DNA of 64,000 bases from Bacillota bacterium (GTDB lineage: Bacteria > Bacillota > Clostridia > Peptostreptococcales > Anaerovoracaceae), in assembly GCA_017416795.1 (NCBI GenBank), contig JAFQBD010000014.1, positions 8,842 through 72,841 on the forward strand, in the 5' to 3' direction. This document shows, in pieces, positions 35,431-49,867 of the stretch. Below the pieces are notes generated by a model. The model searched no databases and was not told where the DNA came from. It saw only the letters and a list, made by a program, of their open reading frames with translations. The position numbers and the translations under genes are program-made. The number at the start of each line of letters is the position of its first letter. The first letter of the stretch is position 1.

Positions 35431-35506
35431 GCGCCATTAGCTCAATGGATAGAGTAACGCACTACGAATGCGCAGGTTTGGGGTTCGAGTCCCTAATGGC
35501 GCGCCA
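35431..35506 (+). tRNA. tRNA-Arg(ACG)
   Basis: Cloverleaf with GCGCCAT/ATGGCGC acceptor stem, loop CT-ACG-AA, GGTTCGAGTCC T-arm and encoded CCA. Confidence 0.95.
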
Positions 35507-35816: not shown

Positions 35817-36296
35817 ATGAAATTATACATAAAAGAAAAAGCGATTTCTGTAATGGATAAGTTCTATGTCAGAAATGAAAAAGGTGACAAGAAATATGAG
35901 ATCAGAAGAAAATTCGAGCCTGCAATAGGATTGAAACTGCATATCCTCGATATGGATGGTAATGAACTGGGATACATCAAAGAGAAGAATATAAGCTTAA
36001 GACCTAAATTCCGTATATTCACAGGTGGGGAACATACAGCGACCATAACCAAGAAAGTGGTTTCCATGAGACCTAAATACGAGGTTGAGGAGCTGGGGTG
36101 GAAGATAAAAGGTAACCTGATACAGCGAGATTATAAGATCGTCGGCAAAGAAGGTGAAGTAATGAATATCCACAAAGGGCTCCTGAAGCTGAGCGATACA
36201 TTCGTACTGGAATTCAGCGATAAAAAACATGTAGTTGAAGCCCTTGCCGTAGTAGTTGCCATCGACTACATACTTGATGAAAAGGCAGAAGACTAA
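35817..36296 (+). CDS. LURP-one/scramblase-like (YxjI-type) protein
   Basis: LYIKEKAIS..DKF, W.IKGNL...DY.I, ALAVVVAID pattern. Confidence 0.75.
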   Translation: MKLYIKEKAISVMDKFYVRNEKGDKKYEIRRKFEPAIGLKLHILDMDGNELGYIKEKNISLRPKFRIFTGGEHTATITKKVVSMRPKYEVEELGWKIKGNLIQRDYKIVGKEGEVMNIHKGLLKLSDTFVLEFSDKKHVVEALAVVVAIDYILDEKAED

Positions 36297-36331
36297 GGAA
36301 AAGGTATTACAAGAACAGAAAGGTGATCAAT

Positions 36332-36748
36332 ATGAGATTAGAATACGTAGGAACAGATATAACAGAACTCAGCCTTAGAAAGGACATCCCCGATGACGCA
36401 GAGATAGAACTTCAGACAAATACCAACTATACAGTGTATTTTTCAGAAGACGGCGATTCATGTTACGGTGAATTCAATGTTGAGATAATATCACAGCATG
36501 ATCCTTCCATGTTATCCATCAATTACTGCTCAAAGAGTTATTTCAATATCTACGATGCATACTTTGGTGAAGAAGGAGACATAGAAAGACAGATCCACAT
36601 GGAAGTATTCAACAGGATCTTCCCTATGTGCAATGAAACATTGAGACAGTTCACATCTATGGCAGGCGTACCTAATATCTCGCTTCTCGAGATGAACATG
36701 TCCGACATGGATATCGTTACTGAAGCTGCACCACAGTTCAGCATGTAG
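36332..36748 (+). CDS. SecB-like chaperone (acidic, about 138 aa)
   Basis: Beta-rich N-terminus, then IFPMCNETLRQFTSMAGVPNISL, resembling the SecB 'lfPy.R..i..lt..aG.P.l.l' signature. Confidence 0.55.
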   Translation: MRLEYVGTDITELSLRKDIPDDAEIELQTNTNYTVYFSEDGDSCYGEFNVEIISQHDPSMLSINYCSKSYFNIYDAYFGEEGDIERQIHMEVFNRIFPMCNETLRQFTSMAGVPNISLLEMNMSDMDIVTEAAPQFSM

Positions 36749-36760
36749 AATAAGAAGGTC

Positions 36761-37348
36761 TTATTTATCATATCTGCAGATTATTTCATCTGCGATCTCT
36801 TTTCTTGAAACACAGCGATCCATTGCAGTTTTTTCGATATATCTGTGAGCATCAGGTTCGCTCATATTTTCATGACTTATCAACATCCATTTAGCACGGT
36901 TGACAAGACGGATCTCTTCCATCTTCTGTTCTATGGATGTTGTTTTATTTTCATAACGGCGGAGACGCTCACGAGAACTTATCATCCATGAAAGGGCGCG
37001 CTCCATTATTGTTCTTGAAGTAGGTTTTGGCAGTGTGAAAACACCGTGAGGAGAAACCTTGCTGTAGATCTCATCGTGGATATCGCTCTTGATCAACAGA
37101 AGTACGACTGCATTATTCCTGGAACAAGTATCCACAGCGAATCTTATACCCTGATCATCAGGCAGCGGAGAGTTTATAATGATAAAATCATATGACCTTT
37201 CTGCCAGCGAACGCTTAGCGCAGTTGATGCCGGAAGCAACAGATACTGTATCATAAAGAGACTCGGGAAGCAGTGAGGTCAGTGAAGCAGTAAATGTCTT
37301 AGATGCTGATACTATAAGGATGCTGTAAACACGCTTTTTGAGACTCAT
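36761..37348 (-). CDS. ANTAR-domain antiterminator with a degenerate receiver domain
   Basis: C-terminal RLVNRAKWMLI...MSEPDAHRYIEKTAMD ANTAR motif. The receiver has IVSA for the acidic pocket and IIINSP for the phospho-Asp. Confidence 0.9.
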   Translation of the reverse strand: MSLKKRVYSILIVSASKTFTASLTSLLPESLYDTVSVASGINCAKRSLAERSYDFIIINSPLPDDQGIRFAVDTCSRNNAVVLLLIKSDIHDEIYSKVSPHGVFTLPKPTSRTIMERALSWMISSRERLRRYENKTTSIEQKMEEIRLVNRAKWMLISHENMSEPDAHRYIEKTAMDRCVSRKEIADEIICRYDK

Positions 37349-37369: not shown

Positions 37370-38581
37370 TTATCTTTTGCAGTAAATGTCCAGTATATCG
37401 GTAGGTATATGTTTTTTGATAAAATCGCTGTCAGCAGCTGCTCTGCAGGCAGCTTCAAGATCCTGCGGCAGTCTCTTGTACTTGTCCAGTTCTTCGCTTG
37501 GGGCCTTGTAAAGATTCAGGTCGGCAGAAGGCGGAAGTTCCAGCTTGTTCCTTATGCCGTATATGCCTGCATATATCATCAATGCAAAGGCCAGGTAAGG
37601 GTTTGATGAAGGATCGGGCGAGCGCATTTCTGCCCTTCGATATTCTCCTGATGCAGCAGGGATACGAATCAGCTGTGAACGGTTTTCGCCTGACCATGAA
37701 ATGAATCCGGGAGCCTTGTCGCTGCCAAATCGCTTGTAAGATTCCTCGATCGGATTCAGGAAGATAGTCATATCTTCCGTTTTATCAAGGACACCCGCGA
37801 TCATTTGATCCATATGGTCTAAGCCGTCATCTGATTGTACAGAGATATTTATATGGAAGCCGCTTCCCGCACTGTCAGCTAAAGGTTTAGGCCCGAAGTC
37901 TGCATGTAATCCGTTTCTGTGAGCAACAGTCTTGACAATAGTCTGGAATGTCATAGCATTGTCGGCAGCAGTGACAGGGTCTGAATATCTGAAATCTATC
38001 TCGTTTTGTCCGGGACCGACTTCATGGTGAGAACTTTCAGGTTGGATTCCCATCTGCTCCAGAGTGAGGCAAATCTCACGTCTGATATTTTCCCCTTTAT
38101 CATCAGGAGCAATATCCATATAGCCTGCATTATCGTATGGGACCTTAGTAGGCATGCCATTGTCATCAAGCTTAAATAAATAAAATTCCTGTTCGGCTCC
38201 GAAGAAAAACCTGAGTCCTGCCGATCTGGCTTCAGATACAGCCTGTTTGAGAAGACTGCGGGTATCACATTTAAAAGGGGTGCCGTCAGGATATCTGATG
38301 CTGCAGAACATGCGAACGATACGGCCGTGTTCCGGTCTCCATGGAAGGAGCATCAACGTGTCGGCATCAGGATACAGCAGAAGATCTGAACGTGATTCAT
38401 CTCCAAAGCCTTTTATGCCCGATGCATCTATGGCGATCCCATAGTCAAAAGCGCGTGGGAGTTCTTCCGGCATGATGGCAATATTTTTTTGCCTGCCGAA
38501 CACATCACAGAACGCCAGACGGATGAATTTGATATCTTCTTCTTGAACAAATTGAATAACTTCGTGTTTTGAGTATTTCAT
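37370..38581 (-). CDS. Glutamine synthetase-like protein (type I fold, non-canonical)
   Basis: GAEQEFYLF, HHEVGPGQNEID, GSGFH, NRS..IRIP, EMRSPDPSSNPYL. The flap reads DKAP instead of YEAP. Confidence 0.85.
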   Translation of the reverse strand: MKYSKHEVIQFVQEEDIKFIRLAFCDVFGRQKNIAIMPEELPRAFDYGIAIDASGIKGFGDESRSDLLLYPDADTLMLLPWRPEHGRIVRMFCSIRYPDGTPFKCDTRSLLKQAVSEARSAGLRFFFGAEQEFYLFKLDDNGMPTKVPYDNAGYMDIAPDDKGENIRREICLTLEQMGIQPESSHHEVGPGQNEIDFRYSDPVTAADNAMTFQTIVKTVAHRNGLHADFGPKPLADSAGSGFHINISVQSDDGLDHMDQMIAGVLDKTEDMTIFLNPIEESYKRFGSDKAPGFISWSGENRSQLIRIPAASGEYRRAEMRSPDPSSNPYLAFALMIYAGIYGIRNKLELPPSADLNLYKAPSEELDKYKRLPQDLEAACRAAADSDFIKKHIPTDILDIYCKR

Positions 38582-38686
38582 GATCCTACCTTCTTTCTTG
38601 AACCATAAGATGTCATATTATATATCCAGCATTCTGAAAAAATCAACAAATATGTTTGAAAAAACAAATAAAAACAAAATTTATGG

Positions 38687-38777
38687 TTGCAAAATTCAAA
38701 AACCGGGTGTATTATGTTCGAGTAAAGGCAAAGGCGTCTTTAATGTTTATACGTTAAAGGCGCCCTTGTCTTTTTTT
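38687..38777 (+). promoter_or_regulatory. sigmaA promoter plus attenuator leader with an ANTAR-type hairpin
   Basis: TTGCAA (38687), 17 bp, TATTAT (38710). Hairpin AAAGGC-[AAAGGC]-GTCTTT (38724-38741) is alternative to a 20-bp terminator stem (38726-38771) followed by T6. Confidence 0.7.
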
Positions 38778-38779
38778 GA

Positions 38780-41528
<2,749 letters not shown>

Positions 41529-45682: not shown

Positions 45683-46777
45683 ATGGAAGGGCTGATTTAT
45701 CTTGAAGATGGCACAGTTTTTAAAGGTCAGGGTTTCGGTGCTCCGGCTACTGCGGTAGGAGAGCTGGTGTTCAATACATCCATGACCGGGTATCAGGAGA
45801 TACTTACGGACCCATCATACAAAGGGCAGATAATCGATATGACATATCCTTTGGTGGGTAATTATGGTATAAGTGAACATGATAACGAATCCGATAAAAT
45901 ACATGCTTTCGGTCTGATAGTGAAAGATCTGTGTGAAACACCGTCAAACAGCATGTGTGTCAAAACTCTTGACCGGTGGCTCGATGAAAATGGTGTGCCG
46001 GGGGTATATGACATAGATACAAGGAAAATCACAAAAATAATAAGAAAAAACGGAACAGTAAAGTGCCTGATAAGTACTGAAGGGATATCCATAAGCGAGG
46101 CCAAGGAGCTATGTGATAAAACGATGCTTAGGAATGATTGGATGAAAGAAGTCTCGGTAAAGACAAAAACTGTAATAATGCCGGAACAGAAAAAAGCGGA
46201 TAAAACTTACCGTGTCGCAGTAATGGATTTCGGTGTTAAAGCCAACATACTGAACAGTTTGAAAAAAAGGGGTTGTGAATTGATATTATATCCATACGGC
46301 ACTGCAGCGGAAGAGATCCTTGCTGATGACCCTGACGGCATACTTCTGACTAATGGTCCGGGAGATCCTGAAGAGGCGACCGAAGCCATAGAAGAAGTCA
46401 AGAAACTGATCCAAAGTGAAATACCTGTCTTCGGCATATGCATGGGACACCAGATCCTCGCGCTGGCCTTTGGAGGGGAGACATATAAATTGAAATATGG
46501 GCACAGAGGGGGAAACCATGGTGTGTACGATAAGGATACAAAAAGATCATATATCACTTCTCAGAATCATGGATATGCAGTAAATCATGAAAGCATCATA
46601 CTTAAAGGGCTGGAAGTGACACATCTCAACTTAAATGATGGTACTGTAGAAGGTATGGCACATAGAGATTTACCTGTTTTCTCTGTCCAATTTCATCCGG
46701 AAGCCTCGCCGGGACCAACAGATACAGCATATCTATTCGATAAGTTTATATCTCTATTGACTTCTGTTCATATTTAA
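45683..46777 (+). CDS. carA: Carbamoyl-phosphate synthase small subunit, copy 1 (catalytic triad intact)
   Basis: FNTSMTGYQE, NGPGDP, GICMGHQ (Cys), FHPEASPGP. Confidence 0.95.
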   Translation: MEGLIYLEDGTVFKGQGFGAPATAVGELVFNTSMTGYQEILTDPSYKGQIIDMTYPLVGNYGISEHDNESDKIHAFGLIVKDLCETPSNSMCVKTLDRWLDENGVPGVYDIDTRKITKIIRKNGTVKCLISTEGISISEAKELCDKTMLRNDWMKEVSVKTKTVIMPEQKKADKTYRVAVMDFGVKANILNSLKKRGCELILYPYGTAAEEILADDPDGILLTNGPGDPEEATEAIEEVKKLIQSEIPVFGICMGHQILALAFGGETYKLKYGHRGGNHGVYDKDTKRSYITSQNHGYAVNHESIILKGLEVTHLNLNDGTVEGMAHRDLPVFSVQFHPEASPGPTDTAYLFDKFISLLTSVHI

Positions 46778-46827
46778 CTAATAATACAAATATGAAAAAC
46801 TACAGATAAAAGGAGCTATATCAGTCG

Positions 46828-47439
46828 ATGGAAATATACATCCAGGGTCTGACTATGGGTTTGGCATACGTCGCACCCATAGGACTTCAGAATCTTTTTG
46901 TTATCAATACGGCATTGACCCAGCCGAAACGCAGATGCTATCTGACGGCACTCATCGTCATATTCTTTGATGTGACACTGGGACTTGCCTGTTTCTTCGG
47001 GATAGGTGCCATCATGCAGTCTTCGAGGGTGCTCGAGATGATAATACTGCTGGTAGGCAGCCTTATCGTCATCTGGATCGGGATCGGTCTTATGCGAGAT
47101 AAGAGTACCATGGACAACTCAACTAAAGTAGATATCCCTATACTCAAGGTGATCACTACTGCATGTGTAGTTACATGGTTCAACCCGCAGGCCCTGATCG
47201 ACGGATCCATGATGCTGGGAGCATTCAAGGCGACACTTCCTCCGGGAACAGATGCTTTCTTCGTAGGCGGATTCGCATCAGCATCGGTGCTTTGGTTCCT
47301 GAGCATCACAACGATAATCTCGCTGTTCAGTGCCAAGTTTACAGATAAGACCCTCAGATGGATCAACATCATCTGCGGCGCAGTTATCATATTCTATGGC
47401 ATCAAACTGCTGGTGACATTCATTACAATGGTGGTATAA
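46828..47439 (+). CDS. LysE/ArgO family amino-acid exporter
   Basis: APIGLQNLFVI, TWFNPQALID motifs. Confidence 0.85.
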   Translation: MEIYIQGLTMGLAYVAPIGLQNLFVINTALTQPKRRCYLTALIVIFFDVTLGLACFFGIGAIMQSSRVLEMIILLVGSLIVIWIGIGLMRDKSTMDNSTKVDIPILKVITTACVVTWFNPQALIDGSMMLGAFKATLPPGTDAFFVGGFASASVLWFLSITTIISLFSAKFTDKTLRWINIICGAVIIFYGIKLLVTFITMVV

Positions 47440-47498
47440 TGATATGGTCGGCGAGAATGGTCGATCATAACAAGAACAATAAGATCGGAGACTAAAAA

Positions 47499-48485
47499 AT
47501 GGACAAGATTAGAATCGGAATACTCGGATACGGTAATTTAGGCAAAGGCGTAGAATGCGCTGTCAAGCAGAATGAAGATATGGAAGTTGCAGCTATCTAT
47601 ACGAGAAGAGATCCTGCATCCATCACACCGCTGACTGAAGGAGTGAAAGTGTGCCATGTGGACGAACTGGAAACTCCGCAGGATATAGATGTACTGATCC
47701 TTTGCGGCGGAAGTGCTACAGATCTGCCGGAGCAGACACCTAAGTACGCTAAGATGTACAACGTAATAGATTCATTCGACAATCACTCTAAGATCCCTGA
47801 GCATTTTGCAGCTGTAGAAGCGGCAGCGAAAGAAGGCGGTAAGATGGCGTTCATCTCTTTCGGATGGGACCCGGGCCTTTTCTCACTTGCCAGAGTTATC
47901 ATGACAGCGGCTCTTCCAAAGGGCGAGAATTACACATTCTGGGGCAAAGGCGTAAGTCAGGGACATTCAGATGCCATCAGAAGGATCGAGGGTGTAAAGG
48001 ATGCGAGACAGTATACCATCCCTGTGGAAAAGGCACTGGATGCAGTAAGAGCAGGAGAAAATCCTGAGTTGACCACGAGAGAAAAACATACAAGAGAATG
48101 CTTCGTAGTTGCTGAAGAAGGTGCAGACCTTGACAAGATCAAGAATGAAATAGTAACTATGCCCGCATACTTTGCAGATTACGATACTACAGTACATTTC
48201 ATCACTGAAGAAGAAATGAAAGCAGAACACTCAGGACTTCCTCACGGCGGCTTCGTCATCCGTGCAGGTAAGACAGGCTGGGAAGAAGAAAACAACTCTA
48301 TCTGCGAATTCAAATTATCGCTGGATTCAAACCCGGAATTCACATCAAGTGTCATAGTTGCTTATGCGAGAGCAGTCCACAGAATGGCGGCAGAAGGCCA
48401 GATCGGATGTAAGACTATATTTGATGTACCAATTTCATACGCATTCCCACAGACAGCTGAAGAAATGCGAAAGCATCTCCTTTAA
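47499..48485 (+). CDS. ddh: meso-diaminopimelate D-dehydrogenase
   Basis: GYGNLG, DSFDNH, GWDPG, TFWGKGVSQGHSDA, HGGFV. Confidence 0.95.
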   Translation: MDKIRIGILGYGNLGKGVECAVKQNEDMEVAAIYTRRDPASITPLTEGVKVCHVDELETPQDIDVLILCGGSATDLPEQTPKYAKMYNVIDSFDNHSKIPEHFAAVEAAAKEGGKMAFISFGWDPGLFSLARVIMTAALPKGENYTFWGKGVSQGHSDAIRRIEGVKDARQYTIPVEKALDAVRAGENPELTTREKHTRECFVVAEEGADLDKIKNEIVTMPAYFADYDTTVHFITEEEMKAEHSGLPHGGFVIRAGKTGWEEENNSICEFKLSLDSNPEFTSSVIVAYARAVHRMAAEGQIGCKTIFDVPISYAFPQTAEEMRKHLL

Positions 48486-48529
48486 CAGATATGATGCGGC
48501 GGCATGTCTGCAGCCGCAGGAGGTCAAAA

Positions 48530-49867
48530 ATGACACAGGCAAATAAAATGGGAACACAAAAAATGCTGCCACTCATATTAGATATGACGTGGCCGCCTTT
48601 TTGTTCCATGATGATGGCATATTCATATAATTTGGTAGACAGCATGTTCGTAGCATGGGCAGGTCACGATGAACTGGCAGCAGTATCGCTGGCATTCCCG
48701 CTCAACACATTCATGGTGGCATGCGCTATCGGTTTCGGTGTAGGTATCAATGTTCTCGTATCGAGACATCTTGGCGAGAAGGACCAGCCGGCAGCCGACC
48801 TGGCGGCAACTAACGGACTGGTGATGGCAGCCCTTATAGGTGTGTTTTTCAACATACTGCTGCTGCTCATAGCCAAACCGTACTTCACCATATTCCTTGA
48901 TGACCCTACTCTTATGGATCTGAGCCTTCAGTATACTAAGATACTTACATTCATGATGGTTCCCGTCATGCTGCAGATAGGTATACAGAAGATACTTCAA
49001 GGTACGGGCAACATGATCGCACCAATGTGGCTTCAGATCAGCGGCGTCATATTCAACTTCGTGCTCGACCCGGCTCTCATCTTCGGATGGGGACCATTCC
49101 CGGAAATGGGCGTCCGCGGAGCGGCAATAGCGACAGTCTTCGGATATACCTTCTCAGGCGCGCTTTCCTTCTACGTGCTCCTTTGCAGGAAACAAAAAGT
49201 CACAGTCAAGTTCAGGGGATACAGACCAAATTGGAAGCAGGCGGCAGAAACTGTCAAGATCGGTATGCCGTCATTCCTCATGAATGTCCTTGGGGCTGTG
49301 ATGGTCAGTGCTGCCAATGCGGTGCTGGTAGGATTCTCGATAACGGCAGTATCATTCTTCGGGGCCTATTTCAAAGTGCAGCAGATCGTTGAGCGCGGGG
49401 TAAACTCGCTGGTTCAGGGTGTGCTGCCGATAATGAGCTTCAATTATGGAGCCAAGGATTACGGCAGACTTCATCATGCATTCAAATTGGGAATAATAAT
49501 AGCTGTCATGATAATGGCAGTAGGGACTGTATTGATCCTGGTATTTCCTGAAACGATCCTAAGCATCTTCAAGGCAGACGAGGCCATGCTGGCAGTCGGA
49601 GTGCCGGCAATGAGGATAATGGTGCTGGGATATGTGTTCGCCGGCATGGGAATAATCTTTGCTACATATATGCAGGCAGTCAAGAATATCAAACAGAGCA
49701 TAATCATCAACCTGCTGAGGCAGGCTATCATACTGCTTCCTGTCATGTTCATACTATCTAATGTCTTCGGTATTTACGGAGTGTGGGTCGCATACCCGAT
49801 AGCAGAAATAGTGACATGTATATACAGTTTCTTCGTATTCAGGAAGAAGTCGGCAGAGCTGAAATAA
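48530..49867 (+). CDS. MATE family efflux transporter
   Basis: YNLVDSMFV, VLDPALIFGW...GVRGAAIAT; about 12 TM segments. Confidence 0.9.
   Translation: MTQANKMGTQKMLPLILDMTWPPFCSMMMAYSYNLVDSMFVAWAGHDELAAVSLAFPLNTFMVACAIGFGVGINVLVSRHLGEKDQPAADLAATNGLVMAALIGVFFNILLLLIAKPYFTIFLDDPTLMDLSLQYTKILTFMMVPVMLQIGIQKILQGTGNMIAPMWLQISGVIFNFVLDPALIFGWGPFPEMGVRGAAIATVFGYTFSGALSFYVLLCRKQKVTVKFRGYRPNWKQAAETVKIGMPSFLMNVLGAVMVSAANAVLVGFSITAVSFFGAYFKVQQIVERGVNSLVQGVLPIMSFNYGAKDYGRLHHAFKLGIIIAVMIMAVGTVLILVFPETILSIFKADEAMLAVGVPAMRIMVLGYVFAGMGIIFATYMQAVKNIKQSIIINLLRQAIILLPVMFILSNVFGIYGVWVAYPIAEIVTCIYSFFVFRKKSAELK

Follow-up and report, generated by a model that had tools for sequence, protein, structure and literature searches.

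We analyzed a 64,000-nucleotide stretch of genomic DNA from a Bacillota bacterium (contig JAFQBD010000014.1; here called the window), in which a gene for a glutamine synthetase (GS)-like protein is followed directly by a gene for a NitR-type ANTAR protein (Table 1). We propose, with a probability of about 0.55, that the GS-like protein is a metabolite-sensing partner that gates the co-transcribed ANTAR antiterminator by protein contact. The first-pass annotation of the window had suggested a similar role, that of a ligand-binding sensor partner which is itself a pseudo-enzyme. The sensor part of this suggestion is supported by synteny, by the loss of the phospho-acceptor aspartate in ANTAR proteins encoded next to GS homologs, by the presence of an extra GS in every genome with a remodeled copy, and by catalytically dead, ANTAR-linked members that remain under purifying selection. 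In contrast, the designation as a pseudo-enzyme is not established, as the ligand residues are 100% conserved in the clade to which the protein belongs.

The open reading frame matches both Pfam domains of GS, Gln-synt_N (PF03951) and Gln-synt_C (PF00120), and a HMMER search identified the type I-alpha GS (GSI-alpha) enzymes of Firmicutes and methanogens as its nearest solved relatives (E ~1e-103). The AlphaFold2 model has a predicted local distance difference test (pLDDT) score of 87.7 and a predicted template modeling (pTM) score of 0.91. In a structure-based comparison with the GSI-alpha structures of M. mazei, P. polymyxa, S. aureus, and B. subtilis, the model gave TM-scores of 0.90–0.93, with M. 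mazei GS as the best match (0.92). The NCBIfam profile scores are low by comparison with their cut-offs. The protein reaches 338.7 bits against the GlnA profile TIGR00653 (equivalog cut-off 429.15), 235 against the type III GS profile (cut-off 470), and 184.4 bits against the gamma-glutamylputrescine synthetase profile NF045547 (GGputSyn; cut-off 650). A filing as a gamma-glutamyl-amine ligase was dropped, since these scores lie far under the cut-offs.

The GS-like protein is also shorter than its solved relatives. A 12-residue segment after the His269-equivalent strand is missing from it in the HMMER alignment, and its C-terminus stops 24–26 residues short of canonical GS. In B. subtilis-type GS, the C-terminal helices alpha14 and alpha15 join two rings (PMC9249791). 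Judged by its position, the missing tail would be alpha15, the last of these helices, and the oligomer of the GS-like protein may therefore differ from that of canonical GS.

We next consider the active-site residues. The HMMER alignment places YKRFG-SDKAPGF beneath YKRLVPGYEAPCY and K289 beneath the flap Glu of LVPGYEAP in S. aureus GS (7tdv). Lys289 therefore stands for the flap Glu (B. subtilis E304, E. coli E327), in agreement with the first-pass annotation, which had read a lysine at this position; the flap as a whole reads YKRFGSDKAPGF. The same annotation had described an altered N-terminal loop. This loop, DASGIKGFGDESRSD, aligns under DGSSIEGFVRIEESD, with GFGDESRSD under GFVRIEESD of 7tdv, and is indeed remodeled with its charges reversed, but Asp50 itself is kept, as D52. 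The substitutions in the window protein are S53 to Gly, B. subtilis R62 to Asp, I63 to Glu, E64 to Ser, E65 to Arg, and N264 to Ala, while the family carries Ala at S53, Thr or Asn at E64, His at E65, and Pro at N264. The elements that handle ammonium have thus been rebuilt, with changes at the flap Glu and Ser53 as well as in the Asp50' and Asn loops. The metal ligands had been described as retained, and this holds for the metal, ATP, and glutamate ligands together (E130, E132, E187, E194, H243, E318, R284, R301, R306, R316, R320, and Y154), which include the ExE motif (E130 and E132) and the HHE motif (E187).

The identity of the rebuilt residues can be read against the known regulation of B. 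subtilis GS. In that enzyme, the product glutamine bonds Glu304, which in turn bonds Arg62' of the neighboring subunit, and this Glu304–Arg62' lock holds both the flap and the Asp50' loop in the conformation to which the GlnR tail binds (PMC9249791); Arg62 is needed for glutamine feedback (PMC10799026). The residues rebuilt in the clade thus correspond to the regulatory lock and the partner-docking surface, and their charges are reversed.

A scan of species-representative genomes returned 516 relatives, and the best 80 of these 516 (71–79% identical) were used for locus counts. They come mostly from Lachnospiraceae and other gut Clostridia. In all 80 loci an ANTAR gene lies directly downstream, at a distance of ~20–170 nucleotides, and all 80 encode Lys at the flap. 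An even sample of 150 Clostridia genomes across families was also surveyed. ANTAR genes occur in 83 of these genomes, and among all 89 such genes, each examined over 2.7 kb upstream, ~64 have a GS homolog immediately upstream on the same strand. Among the Clostridia of gut and rumen, the GS-like/ANTAR module is thus very widespread.

The ANTAR-linked GS homologs fall into three grades. Canonical copies are typical GSI-alpha proteins with DGSSIEGFVRIEESD, GxNGSG, PGYEA, and a C-terminal tail; intermediate copies have the flap Glu and the tail, and have lost Arg62; and short copies, to which the window protein belongs, have the Lys flap, GFG[DG]E..SD, PGNG, and no tail (0 residues, versus +24 in canonical copies). 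In a maximum-likelihood tree, the intermediate and short copies form one clade (100/99), within which all short copies fall into a single nested clade (100/99) together with three further-degenerated members. The canonical ANTAR-linked copies, in contrast, intermingle with unlinked canonical GS. Because the short copies are monophyletic, the window protein belongs to a derived clade of single origin.

Position 304 (B. subtilis numbering) is Lys in 99 of 99 members of this short clade, compared with Glu in 20 of 20 canonical copies, and since the Lys is invariant in the 80 related loci as well, the substitutions are not due to chance. Ser53 (E. coli) is Ala in 92% of the clade, Arg62 (B. subtilis) is Asp in 85% and Gly in 10%, Ile63 (B. 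subtilis) is Glu in 95%, Glu65 (B. subtilis) is His in 74%, and Asn264 (E. coli) is Pro in 84%. At the same time, the six metal ligands, Tyr179, Gly265, Asp50, and the Arg residues assigned to glutamate, ATP, and phosphate are 100% invariant over the 99 members. The window protein is an outlier within its clade at the Asn loop, where residues 236–241 read DSAGSG (xxPGNG in 84–95% of the clade), and at Gly55, where the clade has Ala.

The invariance of the metal, ATP, and glutamate ligands, Asp50, and Tyr179 is what would be expected if the protein were still an enzyme, and the confident GSI-alpha fold points the same way. It could be a GS with altered kinetics or regulation, for example one activated by 2-oxoglutarate (2OG), or a gamma-glutamyl ligase for another acceptor favored by the Lys flap, and be merely co-transcribed with the nitrogen regulator, which is the usual view of glnA-nitR. 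The replacement of the flap Glu by Lys and of Ser53 by Ala or Gly in the whole clade argues against such a role, as do the NCBIfam scores below the cut-offs for GlnA, GGputSyn, and type III GS, and no gamma-glutamyl-amine pathway genes are linked to the locus. Together with the genomic evidence described below, this leads us to regard a retained enzymatic role as less likely than the sensor role, though it is the strongest of the alternatives.

The partner gene is the single ANTAR gene in the 1.94-Mb genome and starts 21 nucleotides downstream of the GS-like gene. Its product aligns with Rv1626 over the full length, and its receiver scores under the Pfam cut-off (22.4 versus 30.2). IVSAS of the ANTAR protein lies against IAEDE of Rv1626, placing Ser-Ala at the acidic pair, and IIINS lies under VIMDV, placing Asn at the phospho-Asp position; the absence of a phospho-Asp, which had been noted in the first-pass annotation, is thereby borne out. 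This loss follows gene order. In the even sample, the phospho-site Asp is present in only 7 of the 64 GS-linked ANTAR receivers, 39 of which have Asn, compared with 19 of the 25 unlinked ones (Fisher p = 5.5e-9). Three unlinked ANTAR proteins have Asn, and two of these are truncated by contig ends. That GS linkage tracks the loss of the phospho-Asp suggests that the two proteins function together independently of a kinase.

A putative RNA target of the ANTAR protein lies in the leader of the divergent purA operon, where a single hairpin overlaps the 5' arm of an intrinsic terminator (Table 1). A covariance model of the hairpin scored the purA leader with E 4e-7 as the only significant site in the genome. 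A genome-wide hairpin/terminator scan found no site beyond this leader, and a loose motif scan of the genome gave noise only. In relatives, the hairpin occurs in two stem versions, AAAGGC/GTCTTT and ATGAGC/GTTCAT, with the loop AA[AG]GGC, an invariant closing C-G pair, and three pairs that covary over 47 sites. There, hairpin and terminator precede the operon of split glutamate synthase (GOGAT), GS-like, and ANTAR genes, as well as type III GS (GSIII)-asnB. Of the features that describe ANTAR RNA targets (Ramesh 2012), the purA leader has the terminator-competing hairpin with A1 and G4 in its hexaloop, and the arrangement of two hairpins (P1 and P2) is absent, as there is room for only one between the -10 element (end 38715) and the terminator. 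No Rfam family matched the purA leader apart from chance miRNA-like hits, and the short leader of the GS-like/ANTAR operon in the window contains no attenuator. The presumed target operon includes a CTP synthase gene (pyrG), and pyrG is also linked to the pair in one relative (L084; GCA_964370735.1, 1-6513), where amtB-PII and GSIII genes are divergent from a GS-like gene (Glu flap, 439 residues), an ANTAR gene, and pyrG.

A candidate ligand is suggested by a pocket that the first-pass annotation did not describe; the C-terminal truncation and the retained Asp50 were likewise missing from it. The 2OG pocket of M. thermolithotrophicus GS is formed by F18, R20, R88, R174, R175, and S191 and needs small residues at positions 34 and 94. 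Bacterial GS such as the B. subtilis enzyme have no Arg88 and clash with the ligand through Y20 and E36. By alignment and the paper's numbering offsets, which agree with the HMMER coordinates, the corresponding residues of the window protein are F19, R21, A35, R82, I88, R167, R168, and S184. The key pocket Arg is found in 18 of 20 canonical, 27 of 27 intermediate, and 99 of 99 short ANTAR-linked copies. In contrast, five canonical GS from the same genome set that are not adjacent to ANTAR genes have I, N, K, E, or G at this position and mismatches elsewhere in the pocket, while Y, E, and T occupy pocket positions of S. aureus GS. Because the predicted pocket is present in the linked grades and absent from five of five unlinked canonical GS, it tracks ANTAR linkage rather than lineage. 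Such a pocket is known from true enzymes and would equally suit a GS that still catalyzes.

Each of the 35 genomes in the survey that carry an intermediate or short copy contains at least one extra GS, usually a GSIII of ~700 residues and often within 5–8 kb. A remodeled copy is the sole GS of its genome in 0 of 36 cases, compared with 5 of 19 for canonical ANTAR-linked copies (p = 0.003). The latter, surely active GS that also precede ANTAR genes and can stand alone, agree with the view of the protein as an enzyme; that a remodeled copy is never the sole GS weighs against it. The genome studied here encodes a 638-residue GS with DGSS and canonical PGYEAP motifs outside the window (contig C60, ~46725-48638, minus strand). 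This GS is probably the working enzyme of the genome, and the GS-like protein, on the sequence evidence, is probably not the cell's glutamine-making enzyme. The leader of the 638-residue GS contains a terminator-like hairpin (CAGGACATTCCCG...CGGGAATGTTCTG followed by TTATTTT) ~50 nucleotides ahead of the start; neither the ANTAR hexaloop nor a significant covariance-model match was found there.

The proximity of GSIII genes, often within a few kilobases of the pair, raises the question of whether the GS-like protein instead regulates a true GS (the 638-residue GS or GSIII) or another enzyme through mixed oligomers or an inhibitory complex, with the ANTAR signal coming from elsewhere. Control through protein partners is common among GS enzymes (PMC9249791). 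However, GSIII and the 638-residue GS differ from the GS-like protein in architecture, making mixed rings unlikely, the true GS gene of this genome is on another contig, and the loss of the phospho-Asp with GS linkage would be left unexplained. We consider this arrangement very improbable.

Several relatives (L198/L200, L167, L180, L194, P0125, and P0137) have lost metal ligands or key Arg residues and have kept an intact gene and the ANTAR linkage. In L198/L200, the losses are E134N, E189A, and E196Q, and the ratio of nonsynonymous to synonymous substitution rates (dN/dS) of the pair is 0.039, similar to the 0.023 of canonical GS; across the clade and the dead relatives dN/dS is 0.04–0.08. 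Because members without metal ligands stay ANTAR-linked under purifying selection, catalysis is suggested to be dispensable for whatever holds the pair together, which is difficult to explain if the protein is kept as an enzyme. The same values bear on the idea that the gene is a decaying, functionless GS paralog. A missing catalytic residue and a truncated C-terminus might be taken as signs of decay, but the protein is 71–79% identical across many genera, ~92 columns are invariant in a 38-sequence alignment (34 clade members and three outgroups at 47–52% identity), the reading frame is intact in all loci, and dN/dS is low even in the dead relatives. Conservation and dN/dS contradict pseudogene decay, which we reject as having next to no likelihood.

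Given these features, we favor the GS-like protein as the sensor of its ANTAR partner, and a possible mechanism can be outlined. 2OG, signaling nitrogen-poor conditions, and glutamine or glutamate with a nucleotide, signaling nitrogen-rich conditions, would determine which conformation the flap and the Asp50' loop adopt. Lys289 would face Asp61/Glu62 of the neighboring subunit, as a reversed-charge stand-in for the Glu304–Arg62' lock. The flap/Asp50' surface, which binds the GlnR and TnrA tails in B. subtilis GS, would then bind or release the ANTAR pseudo-receiver in the fashion of AmiC–AmiR. The free ANTAR dimer would hold the 5'-terminal hexaloop hairpin of the purA leader and thereby block the terminator, turning on the presumed operon purA-purB-guaA-pyrG-asnA-carA. 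NitR induces the GS/GOGAT genes on nitrogen limitation through a "not fully understood mechanism" (PMC6316151). The favored direction is that the nitrogen-excess ligand state sequesters the ANTAR protein and that 2OG releases it. It is based on this induction, on the analogy to AmiC–AmiR, and on a deletion of the type I GS of C. thermocellum, which reportedly raised the transcripts of nitrogen assimilation even though glutamine was high.

A number of points weigh against the sensor proposal. The sign of the regulation is a guess, and the contact between the GS-like and ANTAR proteins is a candidate put forward from synteny. The 2OG pocket was assigned from alignment and numbering offsets rather than from a structure, and this genome yielded just a single RNA target. 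The proposed charge-swapped pairing of Lys289 with Asp61' is no more than plausible, with position 61 being Asp in only 85% of members. Moreover, 100% conservation of the ligands in 99 sequences exceeds the needs of mere ligand binding and fits a retained ATP-dependent reaction. A sensor that hydrolyzes ATP or forms gamma-glutamyl phosphate while sensing would reconcile the sensor and enzyme readings. In the C. thermocellum deletion mentioned above, polarity on the ANTAR gene may have contributed to the reported outcome.

The proposed pair resembles, and differs from, several known systems. In C. saccharobutylicum NCP262 glnA-nitR(-gltAB) and C. thermocellum Clo1313_2030-2036, a GS gene likewise precedes an ANTAR gene, and genes of nitrogen assimilation are subject to attenuation of the ANTAR type. 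The C. thermocellum layout of split GOGAT, GS, and ANTAR genes recurs in relatives of the window. In the glnA-nitR systems, however, the GS is taken as an enzyme and the targets are GS and GOGAT, whereas the window protein has the Lys flap, rebuilt ammonium loops, no C-terminal helix, and another GS in its genome, and the single target is the presumed purA-carA operon. B. subtilis GS, a feedback-inhibited trigger enzyme that acts with TnrA and GlnR, is also a GSI-alpha that reports glutamine status through a flap/Asp50' loop contact, the Glu304–Arg62' lock residues of which are changed here. Its partners are DNA-binding proteins of the MerR type rather than the RNA-binding ANTAR pseudo-receiver proposed here, and it is a complete enzyme that has both thong helices but lacks the 2OG pocket (Y20/E36 clash, no Arg at position 83).

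AmiC–AmiR and NasS–NasT similarly combine a non-phosphorylated pseudo-receiver ANTAR protein, encoded beside a sensor gene, with a hairpin that competes with a terminator. Their sensors have a periplasmic-binding-protein fold, whereas the candidate here is an oligomeric protein of the GS fold. EutV, AmiR, and NasR act on a dual hairpin, in contrast to the one hexaloop hairpin of the purA leader. The 2OG-activated GSI-alpha enzymes of methanogens (M. thermolithotrophicus 8ool/8ooq; M. mazei 8s59) share the pocket, with F18, R20, A34, R88, R174, R175, and S191 equivalent to F19, R21, A35, R82, R167, R168, and S184. Unlike the window protein, they are active enzymes with a Glu flap, a full C-terminus, and no ANTAR partner.

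How clostridial NitR-type ANTAR regulators sense nitrogen has been an open question since the glnA-nitR cluster was described, and our literature searches found no described GS-like/ANTAR sensor pair or GS-like partner of an ANTAR protein. The present data name a candidate sensor, candidate ligands (2-oxoglutarate, glutamine or glutamate), a candidate docking surface, and a one-hairpin RNA output. More tentatively, and at a little under even odds in our estimation, the scheme may extend to a large part of Clostridia. A GS-derived oligomer would there integrate 2OG, through the allosteric pocket, with glutamine or glutamate, through the former active site, and, through direct contact, relay the signal to an ANTAR antiterminator that has no kinase and acts on one hairpin near the 5' end; the Lys-flap clade would be the dedicated sensor, with GSIII or the long GS doing the chemistry. 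If this is true, the family would capture a trigger enzyme at successive stages of becoming a pure receptor, with natural gradations between enzyme and pseudo-enzyme receptor, and would add a third regulatory mode of GS to those of TnrA/GlnR in Bacillus and of the PII/IF systems. The module is relevant to the nitrogen economy of commensals in the gut and to the engineering of cellulolytic clostridial strains.

Table 1. Positions, in window coordinates, of the GS-like/ANTAR locus and the divergent purA leader
Feature	Coordinates	Strand	Basis
GS-like gene, 403 amino acids; short Lys-flap clade of ANTAR-linked GSI-alpha homologs	37370..38581	-	profiles, alignment, tree
Lys289 codon AAG at the catalytic flap Glu position (B. 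subtilis E304 / E. coli E327)	37715..37717 (37717-37715)	-	HMMER alignment
Remodeled Asp50' loop, residues 52-66, DASGIKGFGDESRSD	38384..38428	-	alignment
NitR-type ANTAR protein, 195 amino acids, ATG 37348, AAGGAGG Shine-Dalgarno sequence; pseudo-receiver, coiled coil, and ANTAR domain	36761..37348	-	
Asn codon AAC at the phospho-acceptor site of the receiver-like domain	37172..37174	-	Rv1626 alignment
Promoter-like sequence (TTGATT-18-TATAAT) ahead of the GS-like/ANTAR operon	38617..38646	-	
Promoter-like sequence (TTGCAA-17-TATTAT) ahead of the divergent purA operon	38687..38715	+	
Single ANTAR-type hairpin, 7-bp stem, hexaloop AAAGGC (A1, G4), overlapping the terminator 5' arm	38723..38742	+	
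Intrinsic terminator of the purA leader with U-run, -36.8 kcal/mol, z -6.2, mutually exclusive with the hairpin	38724..38782	+	
purA, first gene of the presumed target operon (nitrogen-adding enzymes)	38813..40114	+	

Further observations concern the family and the surroundings of the pair. The nearest relatives of the window GS-like protein in the tree come from other GTDB families, and the one genome of the same GTDB family with a pair (G001, locus L196) carries a different, long-branch type, with a REQEA flap and an Asp-containing receiver. The module may thus have been transferred laterally or replaced. The top library-search scores belong to two very large predicted proteins, P0121 (4424 residues) and P0124 (2757 residues), with 12 and 6 GS-like stretches, respectively, at ~31% identity, which may represent either multi-GS polypeptides in tandem or errors of assembly. 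Beyond the ANTAR gene, an open reading frame at 36323-36748 without a family match lies beside a gene for a LURP-one-related protein (PF04525; 159 residues; 35817-36296, plus strand), a family better known from plants, and a tRNA gene is located at 35431-35503 on the plus strand (Rfam, 60.5 bits).

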